DNA from: Deltaproteobacteria bacterium
Lineage (GTDB): Bacteria > Desulfobacterota > Deferrimicrobia > Deferrimicrobiales > Deferrimicrobiaceae
DNA length: 64,000 bases
Direction: 5' to 3'
Assembly (NCBI GenBank): GCA_050263095.1
Contig: JBLNEW010000027.1
Location: forward strand, 25,485 to 89,484
Below the pieces are notes generated by a model. That model did not search any database. It was given only the letters and a program-made list of their open reading frames with translations, and had not been told where the DNA came from. Both the position numbers and the translations under genes were made by a program. Numbering within the stretch: the first letter of the stretch is position 1; every line of letters starts with the position of its first letter. Shown here piece by piece: positions 31,312 to 35,747 of the stretch.

Positions 31312-31989
31312 ATGCCTGAAATGCCCAGTAATCGGGTTCTCATCGTCGACGACGATATGCTGATATGTTGGGCGCTCGACAAGGAGTTCGCAGGCCTGGG
31401 CCTTTCGACCCATGTCGTCGAAACGGGGGAGGATGCGCTGGCGGAGTTTCGGCGGCGTCCCTATGACATCGTCTTTCTCGATATCCATCTGCCCGATTCG
31501 AATGGAATAGATCTACTCGGAGAGTTCAACAGGATCGCGCCGGATGCGAAGATCATCATCATGAGCGGCGATGCCAGCGAATCGAACCGGCAACGGGCAT
31601 TGTCGGGCGGCGCTCTGCAGTTTCTCGAAAAACCGTTCGACCTGTCCGAAGTACATGGCATCCTCAACAGTACAAGCGGCGTATACGTGCAGAAACGGAA
31701 GCACCCGAGGCACATCTGCCGCGCTCCCCTCCGTATTTCCATCCTGGAACCCGCGCCTGAAGAAGCGCTATACGACCTTCATAACCTGAGCGCCCTGATC
31801 GCGGATGTCGGCTCGGGGGGCTTGAGACTCCGCACGGAATATCCGTTGAAAGTGGGACAAAACGTCCGGGCGTACGTCTCCGCCGGAAACGATCCGGTCC
31901 TTAAACTAGTCCCCTCGGAAGCCGACGCCGAGGTGGTGTGGGTGGCCCCATCCCAGGAGGGCATAACCGCAGGGCTGAAATTCCTGTAA
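31312..31989 (+). CDS. Response regulator with receiver domain fused to a PilZ (c-di-GMP-binding) domain
   Basis: Receiver domain (VLIVDDD...DIVFLDIHLPDSNG...IIMSG...KPF). C-terminal PilZ motifs RKHPR (RxxxR) and DVGSGGLRL (DxSxxG). Confidence 0.75.
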   Translation: MPEMPSNRVLIVDDDMLICWALDKEFAGLGLSTHVVETGEDALAEFRRRPYDIVFLDIHLPDSNGIDLLGEFNRIAPDAKIIIMSGDASESNRQRALSGGALQFLEKPFDLSEVHGILNSTSGVYVQKRKHPRHICRAPLRISILEPAPEEALYDLHNLSALIADVGSGGLRLRTEYPLKVGQNVRAYVSAGNDPVLKLVPSEADAEVVWVAPSQEGITAGLKFL

Positions 31990-31996
31990 TGCTGAT

Positions 31997-33388: not shown

Positions 33389-34839
33389 GCCTCTTGCTCT
33401 GCGGGCTTGATGCTCAAGGGGATCCTGATCCTGAAAACCGTGCCGACGGGTGTATTTGATCCTACCGAAATGGTTCCTCCGTGCTGCTCGACCAGCTGCT
33501 TCGAAATCGCCAGCCCCAGCCCGGTTCCCTTCGGTTTCGTGGTGAAAAACGGCTGGAATATCTGGTCGGCGTGCTCCCTGCTGATCCCCTTGCCCGTGTC
33601 GGAAATCTCTACGTGGATCAGATCGGGCCCCTTTTCGAAGTATGTCCTGACGCCGAGCGTCCCGCCGTTCGGCATGGCGTCGACGGCGTTCAGCACTATG
33701 TTCAGGAATATCTGCTGCAGCTGCATCGGATCCGCCATCGTTTCCGGAACGGGCTGAAGGTCCTTCGCGATGACCATGGCGTTGGGGCGTTCCGGCGCGG
33801 CCGTTCGGCTTTTCACGTAAAAGGCGAGAATGGTGTTAATGAGATTGTTGACGTTCAGCTCCGCAAGCCGCGGCTTGGCCGGCTTGGCGAAATTAAGGAA
33901 GTTCTTCATAAGGGATTCGAGCCGCACAACCTCCTGGCCGACCTTTTTCACGACGCCCCGATCTTCCTCCGACAACCCCGCTTCCTCGGACAGGACCTGC
34001 ATCGCCACCTTGATCCCCGCCAGCGGGTTCTTGATCTCGTGCGCCAGGCCCGCCGCCAGCTCGCCTACAACCACCAGCTGTTCCGTGCGCTGCATCTTGT
34101 GCATCTGCTCCTTGAGCGAACCGGCCATCTCGTTTATGGAGGACGCCAATTCCCCGAACTCGTCCTTCAAGCCTACCACTCGGTGGTCCAGGTCCCCACC
34201 TTTCAACTTCCTGGTGGATTCGACAAGCACCTTGACCGGTCGTGTCAGGCCCGTTATGAAGATAAACCCCAGCAGCGCCGAAACGAGCGGGCCGATCGCC
34301 ACTAGCCCGTAGAGGATGTATTTCGTCCGGGAGATCTGGTCCATCGCCTTTTGGGTGTTCTCAGCAAGCCGGGACGTGGTTATAGCGATCATGTCCTGGA
34401 CCTTGACTATCAGTTTGTCGCCGGTCCTGAATGCGGCGTCCTTTTCCGCGGAGAACCTGGAGGCGTTGGCCCTTATGGTCAACACCCTGCTCAGCTCGTC
34501 CTTATACTTTTCCGTCTCGGCCTTGAGATCCTTAAGCCGCTCCGTCCCGCGGGGCGAGTGGTGGCAGTCGAAACAGGTGTCGATGGTCCTGCCCATGTTC
34601 ATGACATTCATCACAACGGTTTCGAAGCTTCTCGAATAGCGCGTATCCATCAGGGTGAGGTCCGACTGCACCCGTTTGATCTGCAGAAGGTAGTGCTCTC
34701 TCAGGATTTCGACTTGATGGAGTGTTATCAACTTGTCCAGGTCGGCCGTGGCGGACCGGATCGTCTGGACGACATAAACTCCTGCCAGGAGGAATATGAC
34801 GGAATAAATGGACAGTCCGAGAACGATTTTTCTTTTCAT
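33385..34839 (-). CDS. Sensor histidine kinase with a periplasmic haem-c (CxxCH) sensor domain, HAMP, HisKA and HATPase
   Basis: Two transmembrane helices flank a periplasmic domain of about 150 aa containing CFDCHH. H-box ELAAGLAHEIKNPL. G-boxes DTGKGI, GTGLGL. Its ATG overlaps the stop of the upstream binding-protein gene (TGATG). Confidence 0.8.
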   Translation of the reverse strand: MKRKIVLGLSIYSVIFLLAGVYVVQTIRSATADLDKLITLHQVEILREHYLLQIKRVQSDLTLMDTRYSRSFETVVMNVMNMGRTIDTCFDCHHSPRGTERLKDLKAETEKYKDELSRVLTIRANASRFSAEKDAAFRTGDKLIVKVQDMIAITTSRLAENTQKAMDQISRTKYILYGLVAIGPLVSALLGFIFITGLTRPVKVLVESTRKLKGGDLDHRVVGLKDEFGELASSINEMAGSLKEQMHKMQRTEQLVVVGELAAGLAHEIKNPLAGIKVAMQVLSEEAGLSEEDRGVVKKVGQEVVRLESLMKNFLNFAKPAKPRLAELNVNNLINTILAFYVKSRTAAPERPNAMVIAKDLQPVPETMADPMQLQQIFLNIVLNAVDAMPNGGTLGVRTYFEKGPDLIHVEISDTGKGISREHADQIFQPFFTTKPKGTGLGLAISKQLVEQHGGTISVGSNTPVGTVFRIRIPLSIKPAEQEA

Positions 34840-35747
34840 CAGTCGTTGGTGTAATCGTAGGAGGTCAGGTTCAGGTGTATGGCTTCGGCATACTTCACTA
34901 CGACGTCGTAATCCTCGTTCGTGGTCTCCGTGAACCTCAGCGCTCCCAAGCGTTCAAGCGCCTTTTTCCCTTCAGGGTCCGTGTGCATGCTCAGGAGGGC
35001 ATCCTTCAGCCGCATTCGCATCGGTTCATCTATGTCCTTGCGCAGGGCGATCGCGTTCTCCGGCACGTCGGGGGACCGTTCCAGGACCGACAGCTCATCC
35101 CGTATCCTTGGATGCTCCGCTGCCATCCGGTTGAAAACCGTGTTTTTCGCCGCTCCTATATCCGCCTTCTTGTTCAGCACGTCGTATATGGCGTCCTCGT
35201 GCGTGCCGGCGAAATAGGCCTCCTTGAGGTATACCTTGTAATCCGATATTCCGTGCCTGCGAAAGTATTCCAACGGAAGAAGATAGCCGGCGGTCGTCGC
35301 CTTGTCCACAAACGCGAAACGCTTTCCCCTCATGCCGCCGATATTCCTGATGCTGCTGTCTTTCCGAACTATGATCAGGCCATGATACGTGGAGGTATTA
35401 TCGTTAGCCACTGGCCGTGCGAGGACTTCCACGCCGAGCTTCGCGTGGGCAAGCGCATAGGTGAAGCTGCCGAAAAAGGCGCCGTCCAGCCCGGCCGATT
35501 TGAAGTTATCGATGATGTTCCCGTATCGCCGCAGGATCTTTAGCTTTACCTTCGCGCCTGTTTTCATGGAGAGATAACCGGCCAGCGGCTCGTATCGTTC
35601 GAGCTGGTTGAATATGTTCTGCTCGGGGATAAGCCCGATCAATAAAGTCTTTCGCGGAACCGTCTCGGATTTCGGGGGGGGCGCCTCCTGGGCGCACCCT
35701 GCCAGGACAAAAAAGCAAAGGAAAGCGGTAATCAGTCGTCGAATCAT
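34839..35747 (-). CDS. PhnD-like periplasmic substrate-binding lipoprotein (phosphonate/phosphite-binding family), probable sensor partner
   Basis: Lipobox LAGCAQ. PhnD/SsuA-type periplasmic-binding fold pattern (LLIGLIPEQN...YHGLIIVRKDS...FAFVD..TTAGYLLP). Co-operonic with the kinase and response regulator. Confidence 0.6.
   Translation of the reverse strand: MIRRLITAFLCFFVLAGCAQEAPPPKSETVPRKTLLIGLIPEQNIFNQLERYEPLAGYLSMKTGAKVKLKILRRYGNIIDNFKSAGLDGAFFGSFTYALAHAKLGVEVLARPVANDNTSTYHGLIIVRKDSSIRNIGGMRGKRFAFVDKATTAGYLLPLEYFRRHGISDYKVYLKEAYFAGTHEDAIYDVLNKKADIGAAKNTVFNRMAAEHPRIRDELSVLERSPDVPENAIALRKDIDEPMRMRLKDALLSMHTDPEGKKALERLGALRFTETTNEDYDVVVKYAEAIHLNLTSYDYTND

Follow-up and report, generated by a model that had tools for sequence, protein, structure and literature searches.

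In a 64,000-nucleotide stretch of a Deltaproteobacteria bacterium genome (Deferrimicrobiaceae; contig JBLNEW010000027.1, positions 25,485 to 89,484; hereafter the window), four regulatory genes lie beside a gene cluster for OmcS-type cytochromes, the proteins of cytochrome nanowires. They encode a PhnD-type periplasmic binding lipoprotein, a sensor histidine kinase with a candidate haem-c attachment motif, an NtrC-type sigma-54 activator, and a divergently encoded receiver-PilZ protein (REC-PilZ). We propose that these genes provide a three-component system with a haem-c sensor, which is probably the local on-switch of the cytochrome cluster. The regulatory wiring itself, from the module to the nanowire operon and to REC-PilZ, is quite likely. 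A first-pass annotation of the same DNA had considered a redox control point for nanowire expression plausible here, and the conservation of the kinase motif, of the promoters and of the dyad sites described below supports that view.

Gene architecture, motif conservation, synteny, and the conservation of promoter and enhancer sites were observed in the window and in 37 related loci, two of which were found by exact protein look-up and 35 in GTDB species genomes. The gene calls are backed by strong domain scores, and domain matches confirmed the four members of the module that had been named before: kinase, PhnD-like protein, sigma-54 activator, and REC-PilZ. Two gene junctions were read directly. 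At the first, the stop codon of the binding-protein gene overlaps the start codon of the kinase gene in a TGATG (34841-34837), as expected if the kinase is translationally coupled to the binding protein, which carries a lipobox (LAGC, Cys18). At the second, the kinase stop overlaps the activator start in an ATGA (33388-33385), which places a gene for a receiver, an AAA+ domain and HTH_8 after the kinase, as had also been suggested. The REC-PilZ and activator genes are convergent, and as only 7 bp separate their stop codons (31989-31997) there is no space between them for a conventional intergenic terminator. On its other side, REC-PilZ diverges from the cytochrome cluster; the intergenic region reaches to the NHL-repeat gene and is the promoter region that the first-pass annotation had taken to be common to REC-PilZ and the cluster. 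The window kinase is 100% identical to a protein of a "Deltaproteobacteria bacterium" metagenome-assembled genome (MAG), and its near relatives carry the labels Candidatus Deferrimicrobium or Deferrimicrobiaceae.

The activator is of the NtrC type by its phospho-acceptor aspartate (D55 of the receiver), its AAA+ sigma-54 domain (Sigma54_activat, E 4.7e-61), and its C-terminal Fis-type helix-turn-helix (HTH_8). The AAA+ domain has a Walker A motif (GENGTGKE) and a GSFTDA loop, a variant of GAFTGA in which the F-T is kept. A scan for TGGCAC-N5-TTGCW with at most two mismatches placed one promoter at each border of the REC-PilZ/NHL intergenic region, both in the correct orientation: TGGCATGTCCATTGCA ahead of the operon that begins with the NHL gene and continues with the OmcS homologue, and AGGCATGTAAATTGCT ahead of REC-PilZ. 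Among the 29 related loci with a REC-PilZ gene, 26 have such a site within about 100 nt upstream of it, against a background expectation of 0.009 per 100 nt; of the other three, one shows a TTGT variant, and in two the promoter lies beyond an inserted open reading frame (ORF). An equivalent promoter precedes the NHL/OmcS operon in 14 further loci. It is this conservation of position that makes the two promoters of the window significant, and the sigma-54 promoters expected in the cluster by the first-pass annotation were thus found, both before the NHL/OmcS operon and before REC-PilZ.

The upstream promoter also bears on where the NHL gene starts. The longest ORF, which begins at 30977, contains the sigma-54 promoter within its first codons, and the start is almost certainly the ATG at 30935, from which a normal signal peptide (MHAAINNATRLFLSLMWVPFIFSIFPSIAQS) results. 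At both promoters the start codon then follows the -12 C by only 12-16 nt (mostly 13 nt for REC-PilZ), a short spacing that is conserved in most of the related loci. Transcription from the canonical start would give leaders of 0-4 nt with no Shine-Dalgarno sequence, that is, nearly leaderless mRNAs, which would be unusual for sigma-54 transcripts.

Upstream of the promoters, candidate enhancer sites have a consistent layout. Upstream of REC-PilZ promoters, the hexamers AATCAC and ATCACC are over-represented (14 of 25 loci, with 1.2-2.9 expected), and iterative refinement yielded the dyad GGTGA-N2-TCACC with the consensus TTGGTGAAATCACCGAA. These dyads are usually paired, 21-23 bp apart, and lie 90-130 nt upstream of the REC-PilZ promoters. 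When the matrix trained on these regions was scanned before the NHL-operon promoters, a dyad centred 101-104 nt upstream was found in 12 of 14 loci, often with a second one at 79-83 nt, at a background rate of 1.1e-4 per position. In at least five of those loci (L001, L002, L003, L006, and L007) a cytochrome gene lies between the scanned and the training regions. The highest-scoring dyad of the whole window, CCGGGGAAATCACCAAT, lies about 100 nt upstream of the NHL-operon promoter, and the tandem dyads TGGGTAATATCACCATA and TGGGTGTTATCACCATA precede the REC-PilZ promoter, with their centres at distances of 126 and 103 nt; the matrix also picked out a weaker site, CTGGTTTTATCCCGGAA. In a more distant module, L039, a perfect promoter (TGGCACAATTATTGCT) faces a cytochrome operon and has two top-scoring dyads 115 and 93 nt upstream, and the divergent promoter serves a lone receiver gene. 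The layout of promoter and dyads recurs in Deferrimicrobia, Nitrospirota, Acidobacteriota, and other lineages. Read from sequence, it has the geometry that is classical for an NtrC-family regulon and is found together with the gene of this activator, so that the activator is predicted to act on the -24/-12 promoters from the upstream dyads.

As a conserved sigma-54 target, REC-PilZ is the predicted induced component of the system. Its receiver has the acidic pocket, D57, and K107, and best matches receivers of the NtrC/AtoC type, like that of the activator. The first-pass annotation had described REC-PilZ as a cyclic di-GMP (c-di-GMP) protein, and this stands in part. The PilZ domain scores above the Pfam curated cut-off and its RxxxR motif is present (RKHPR at residue 129) and conserved in orthologues. 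What counts against the description is the second c-di-GMP motif, which reads DVGSGG instead of D-x-S-x-x-G; the D and G are kept and the Ser is replaced. The c-di-GMP part is therefore the weakest of the interpretation, and we put a response of REC-PilZ to c-di-GMP at a little under an even chance from its motifs. Indeed, REC-PilZ may instead be insensitive to c-di-GMP and simply tune signalling from kinase to activator as a phosphate sink or connector, a serious though not favoured possibility. The motif is similarly altered throughout the Deferrimicrobia clade, and in L039 a lone receiver without PilZ occupies the position of REC-PilZ, as this alternative would have it. The conserved RxxxR and the PilZ score speak for c-di-GMP, as do distant orthologues that retain the canonical (D/N)-x-S-x-x-G in the forms DVSNGG, DLSDGG, and NISESG. 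Both phosphate-sink feedback and a c-di-GMP-dependent effector role are thus possible for REC-PilZ.

The input side of the proposed switch is the periplasmic domain of the kinase. CFDCHH occupies residues 89-94, and its position between the two hydrophobic segments of the protein (3-27 and 174-206) places it in the periplasmic loop, where the first-pass annotation had located it. In kinase homologues of at least 65% identity, C-F-x-C-H-H is kept in 120 of 120, with D, E, G, Q, R or A at the variable position. The periplasmic domain alone was then searched against 1.84 billion cluster representatives, which gave 235 families at E <= 1e-3. Among the best 150 representatives, down to about 25% identity, CxxCH is present in 148, nearly always at residue 89, and is followed by the second His in 147; the two that have no CxxCH are fragments. 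Loss of CxxCH in orthologues would have told against the haem-c assignment of the first-pass annotation, and the motif proved to be kept throughout. In full-length alignments, the only invariant columns of the sensor domain are C89, C92, H93, and H94, and H41, R47, L50, and Q58 are conserved at 90% or more. Sensor-only alignments also show conservation of at least 85-90% at H41, E44, Q58, T66, Y112, S117, and G140. With this family-wide invariance, CxxCHH is on sequence grounds the defining feature of the domain.

This 150-residue domain is predicted to form a four-helix bundle between the transmembrane segments TM1 and TM2. An AlphaFold (AF2) model of the sensor region built with a 37-sequence alignment is all-helical (helices 2-62, 72-91, 96-121, and 126-199; predicted local distance difference test score, pLDDT, 91.3) and has the CxxCH at the end of helix 2; a single-sequence model was poor (pLDDT 56). 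The best Foldseek matches were NarQ sensor-TM fragments, the sensor of the Adeh_2942 kinase of Anaeromyxobacter, Tar/Tsr, and the N-domain of LytS with XylFII. No model of Pfam or NCBIfam covers residues 26-175 of the window kinase, even at E <= 10 each Pfam model reached at most 3 of 37 members of the sensor family, and none of the Pfam 4HB, TarH or NarX models matches the domain. When the sensor alignment was used as a profile against the PDB, no sequence relative emerged, and a literature search on CXXCHH found no match. A PAS-like or Cache_heme fold was also considered and disagrees with the all-helical model and with the lack of any PAS or Cache Pfam match in the N-terminal 200 residues of the kinase. 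In all 75 representatives scanned, the domain is followed by HAMP, and the outputs beyond it vary: kinase in 60, often together with PAS domains (45), hybrid receivers in 14, GGDEF in 6, EAL in 5, and sigma-54 AAA+ in 2. Its constant linkage to HAMP and its varied outputs are the behaviour expected of a modular input domain. It appears to be one that has not been described, often paired with a PhnD-type binding protein.

Covalent attachment of haem at the CxxCH of the kinase is likely from the motif, which would in turn suggest redox or gas sensing. Two points weigh against this part of the proposal. The motif itself is the argument for haem, and CxxC with HH might instead be a metal site or a disulfide switch; furthermore, the Foldseek matches are weak (E >= 0.008, TM-scores 0.4-0.8). 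The wiring could be as described and CxxCHH be a Cys2His2 metal site or a thiol-disulfide redox switch, not a haem site. H94, the second His, is as invariant as the canonical CxxCH, which is atypical for c-type haem sites and reminiscent of metal sites, and the PDB and Pfam searches brought up no known haem-c four-helix sensor. Nevertheless, a periplasmic CxxCH in an organism with multiple c-type cytochromes normally receives haem, neighbouring His residues seldom chelate one ion, and the distant H41 (93% conserved), together with the small conserved residues A136 and G140, suits a haem pocket with a sixth ligand. We therefore consider a metal site or thiol switch unlikely and retain the haem-c assignment.

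The binding protein is a homologue of the regulatory proteins AioX and ArrX. Its nearest solved structures are PtxB, PhnD, ArrX, and AioX (E 7e-29 to 4e-18; AioX and ArrX at E 1e-18 to 1e-20), and it keeps the anion-binding loop as DKATTAGY (DRASTSSH in PtxB, DPNSTSGF in PhnD). No ABC permease or ATPase gene adjoins its gene in the window flank or in the related loci. Of 36 informative loci, 29 have the gene on the upstream side of the kinase gene, and it is missing from the other seven. A Phosphonate-bd gene was also found directly upstream in two of four distant members of the sensor family with other outputs. One of these two is a HAMP-PAS-kinase whose Phosphonate-bd gene has an overlapping stop/start, with a sigma-54 activator after it and cytochromes in the flanks. 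The second is a CxxCHH-HAMP-PAS-GGDEF-EAL protein of 961 aa (L041, 4079-7886), and because the Phosphonate-bd gene lies immediately upstream there as well, the pairing of binding protein and sensor is independent of the type of output. As the remaining two distant members have no binding protein, the haem domain is evidently able to work alone, with the binding protein as a frequent accessory.

The closest mechanistic analogue of the module, as judged by its composition, is AioXSR/ArrXSR. Those systems regulate arsenite oxidase and arsenate reductase, and in each a regulatory binding protein, AioX or ArrX, acts alongside a kinase and a response regulator. In AioXSR, the regulator AioR depends on sigma-54 and the target is an operon for a respiratory redox enzyme. 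The likeness lies in a PhnD/PtxB-family binding protein that has no transporter partner and stands beside a membrane kinase and a response regulator. By analogy with AioX and ArrX, there is about an even chance that the binding protein of the module acts as a co-sensor. AioX-style binding of arsenite is unlikely because the mature protein has no Cys. The module differs further in the invariant CxxCHH of its kinase sensor, which AioS and ArrS are not known to carry, in its target, an OmcS-type cytochrome cluster, and in the additional REC-PilZ gene. The first-pass annotation had the parts of the module right but missed REC-PilZ as a sigma-54 target and the candidate co-sensor role of the PhnD-like protein.

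The comparison of loci often shows this module beside cytochromes. The order of binding protein, kinase, activator, and convergent REC-PilZ recurs in most of the 37 loci, in MAGs labelled Deferrimicrobia, Nitrospirota, Acidobacteriota, Gemmatimonadota, and others. In many of them OmcS-like, NHL, and beta-propeller genes stand alongside, and the opposite flank varies (cysS and a methyltransferase in L001, other cytochromes in L002). Multihaem ORFs occur in 16 of the 22 loci of at least 15 kb. They are present in 22 of 29 loci with the binding protein and in none of the seven without it, an association for which a hypergeometric estimate uncorrected for relatedness gives about 4e-4.

Several observations weigh against control of the cytochrome cluster by this module. 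Sigma-54-like matches in the window as a whole do not exceed chance (17 found, 20.9 expected), the promoters are argued from comparative conservation among related and therefore non-independent sequences, and they might be used by another activator. Moreover, the dyad sites of the window belonged to the training set of the matrix. Finally, paralogous modules that have no binding protein flank aldehyde:ferredoxin oxidoreductase or molybdopterin genes, not cytochromes. Indeed, in two modules of kinase, activator, and REC-PilZ, the sigma-54 promoter faces genes for a 4Fe-4S protein and aldehyde:ferredoxin oxidoreductase (L020, 15856-18442) or MoaA-like and molybdopterin genes (L011, 14752-16578), and the family is for this reason not exclusively a nanowire regulator. 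It is nonetheless very unlikely that the module is an ordinary two-component system for another process, such as oxyanion or phosphonate handling, with the cytochrome neighbourhood incidental and the promoters served by a different activator: the chance-level matches, the paralogous modules and the best family matches of the binding protein, which are phosphonate or phosphite transport proteins, fit such a system, but no transporter genes adjoin the module, the synteny with the OmcS-like cluster persists across phyla as the other flank changes, and promoter and dyads keep a fixed spacing wherever this activator gene occurs.

For the proposed on-switch of the cytochrome cluster, we infer haem attachment, the ligand, the contact between binding protein and kinase, the phosphotransfer partners, and the role of REC-PilZ as follows. 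The lipid-anchored PhnD-family protein would report a small periplasmic ligand, probably an oxyanion, to the four-helix bundle of the kinase. In this bundle, C89-x-x-C92-H93 most likely binds one c-type haem covalently, so that the kinase would combine information on ligand occupancy and on the redox or gas status of the periplasm. The signal would pass through TM2 and HAMP to the kinase core, which would phosphorylate the NtrC-type activator at D55. The activator would then assemble on the GGTGA-N2-TCACC dyads of the 335-bp intergenic region and open the two divergent sigma-54 promoters, one for the operon of NHL, OmcS-like, and beta-propeller genes and one for the receiver-PilZ gene, both giving nearly leaderless transcripts. 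The induced receiver-PilZ protein would be a second phospho-acceptor, possibly c-di-GMP-sensitive, and may act in feedback or link the making of filaments to the biofilm state.

A precedent for this arrangement exists in Geobacter sulfurreducens, where the kinase GSU2507 and the sigma-54 response regulator GSU2506 flank the NHL gene GSU2505 and omcS (GSU2504) (PMC11077965, PMC10599522, PMC13194489). GSU2507 is a 621-aa Cache_1-HAMP kinase and GSU2506 a sigma-54 regulator with PAS (PMC11077965, PMC10599522), and mutations in GSU2507 alter omcB and pilA expression (PMC11077965, PMC10599522, PMC13194489). In contrast to the module, the pair as described has no PhnD-like protein, CxxCHH domain, REC-PilZ or defined promoter and enhancer layout, and direct control of omcS by GSU2506/GSU2507 is not reported in these papers (PMC11077965, PMC10599522). 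Known periplasmic haem-c sensors, namely the PAS-like GSU0582/GSU0935, DcrA of Desulfovibrio, and Cache_heme, share with the kinase a single CxxCH in a periplasmic input domain and a proposed role in redox or gas sensing (PMC3831638, PMC12889525). However, those domains are PAS-like or Cache, whereas the domain of the module is predicted to be all-helical and has no Pfam model. Its predicted topology of TM1, four-helix periplasmic bundle, TM2, and HAMP fits that of NarX/NarQ, Tar/Tsr, Adeh_2942, and LytS-N. Among these, LytS-N docks XylFII and is thus an earlier example of a four-helix bundle that contacts a periplasmic binding protein. None of these proteins bears haem, and none has detectable sequence similarity to the domain of the module. 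The Deferrimicrobium genome paper makes no mention of OmcS, sigma-54 or kinases.

All in all, we regard the module as a two-component system that is assisted by a binding protein and coupled to sigma-54, in which the putative haem-c four-helix input domain and the directly predicted nanowire regulon are new. A fuller version would combine an undescribed haem-c four-helix family, docking of the binding protein so that ligand and redox state are both required, a role of the subfamily coupled to the binding protein as the dedicated and directly acting master switch of OmcS-type operons in at least four to five phyla, and leaderless sigma-54 transcripts. We offer this combination tentatively and regard it as rather doubtful as a whole.

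Table 1 Features of the regulatory module and of the adjoining cytochrome cluster, in window coordinates
Feature	Position	Strand	Remarks
PhnD/PtxB/AioX/ArrX-family periplasmic binding lipoprotein	34839..35747	-	302 aa; Pfam Phosphonate-bd E 6.9e-62; lipobox LAGC
Sensor histidine kinase	33385..34839	-	484 aa; TM1, periplasmic domain, TM2, HAMP, HisKA (H267), HATPase_c
Candidate haem-c attachment codons C89-F-D-C92-H93-H94 of the kinase	34558..34575	-	motif reading
NtrC-type sigma-54 enhancer-binding response regulator	31997..33388	-	463 aa; Response_reg, Sigma54_activat, AAA_lid_14, HTH_8
Receiver-PilZ protein (REC-PilZ)	31312..31989	+	225 aa; Response_reg E 1.8e-23, PilZ E 8.6e-9
Sigma-54 -24/-12 promoter of REC-PilZ, AGGCATGTAAATTGCT	31284..31299	+	ATG 13 nt after -12 C
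Weaker dyad-like site, CTGGTTTTATCCCGGAA	31211..31227		matrix scan
Tandem dyads, TGGGTAATATCACCATA (31150-31166) and TGGGTGTTATCACCATA (31173-31189)	31150..31189		23 bp apart
Top dyad of the whole 64-kb window, CCGGGGAAATCACCAAT	31058..31075		score 19.2; centre ~100 nt upstream of NHL-operon promoter
Sigma-54 -24/-12 promoter of NHL/OmcS-like operon, TGGCATGTCCATTGCA	30951..30966	-	one mismatch to consensus
NHL-repeat beta-propeller gene, first of target operon	29943..30935	-	start probably ATG 30935, not 30977
Six-haem OmcS homologue (filament-forming cytochrome family)	28460..29710	-	six CxxCH
YNCE/lactonase-type beta-propeller protein of the cluster	26878..28278	-	syntenic in related loci

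The six-haem cytochrome of the target operon matches the OmcS structure PDB 6ef8 over its full length (E 2.4e-95, residues 26-416 against 1-407). Several relatives (L001, 13688-14971; L002, 13745-15013; also L003, L006, and L007) have an extra six-haem OmcS paralogue, which is encoded on the strand of REC-PilZ and separates that gene from the NHL gene; it is absent from the window, where REC-PilZ directly abuts the NHL intergenic region. Farther into the cluster, 12522-26872 (-) encodes a 741-aa protein that has no Pfam match, a GNA1162-like lipoprotein, a 1140-aa Ig/PKD-repeat protein, a SurA-like peptidyl-prolyl isomerase, a cytochrome with 13 paired-CXXCH repeats, a second NHL protein, and a TPR protein. 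The stretch at 6463-12476 (+) encodes two proteins, each about 1000 aa long, that contain a spermine/spermidine synthase-like domain, one of them with TPR repeats and a weak, below-cut-off match to the major facilitator superfamily. The cluster (about 4000-31000) has a G+C content of 0.36-0.54, against 0.60-0.67 in the flanks, which could mark an acquired island or reflect the composition bias of secreted proteins. One further sigma-54-like match with a single mismatch, TGGCATTCCCATTGCT at 4921-4936 (+), precedes a c7-type cytochrome gene (5326-6114) by 390 nt. As it falls inside a cytochrome ORF, in the 3' end, with no dyad site in its vicinity, it was treated as a chance match, which it probably is.

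On the other side of the module, an O-methyltransferase gene (Methyltransf_2 and a dimerisation domain; 35797-36771, -) stops 49 bp short of the binding-protein gene, on its upstream side, and may share a transcript with the module. Its synteny extends to L001, L011, L012, L027, and L031. In L011, a close relative, the genes for methyltransferase, kinase, activator, and REC-PilZ are present, whereas the binding protein and the cytochrome cluster are both missing.

From a biological perspective, what leads bacteria to produce cytochrome nanowires is for the most part not understood, and even in Geobacter the kinase and activator next to omcS are only partly characterised. The module described here recurs across phyla and offers testable parts: promoters and enhancers given to the letter, a putative haem sensor with a possible ligand-binding partner, and a protein that may act in feedback. 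The sensor domain family, with its 235 clusters at 50% identity and outputs that include kinase, GGDEF/EAL, and sigma-54 AAA+, adds to the signalling repertoire of bacteria. With these elements it may become possible to predict the onset of extracellular electron transfer in uncultured Deferrimicrobia, Nitrospirota, and Acidobacteriota.

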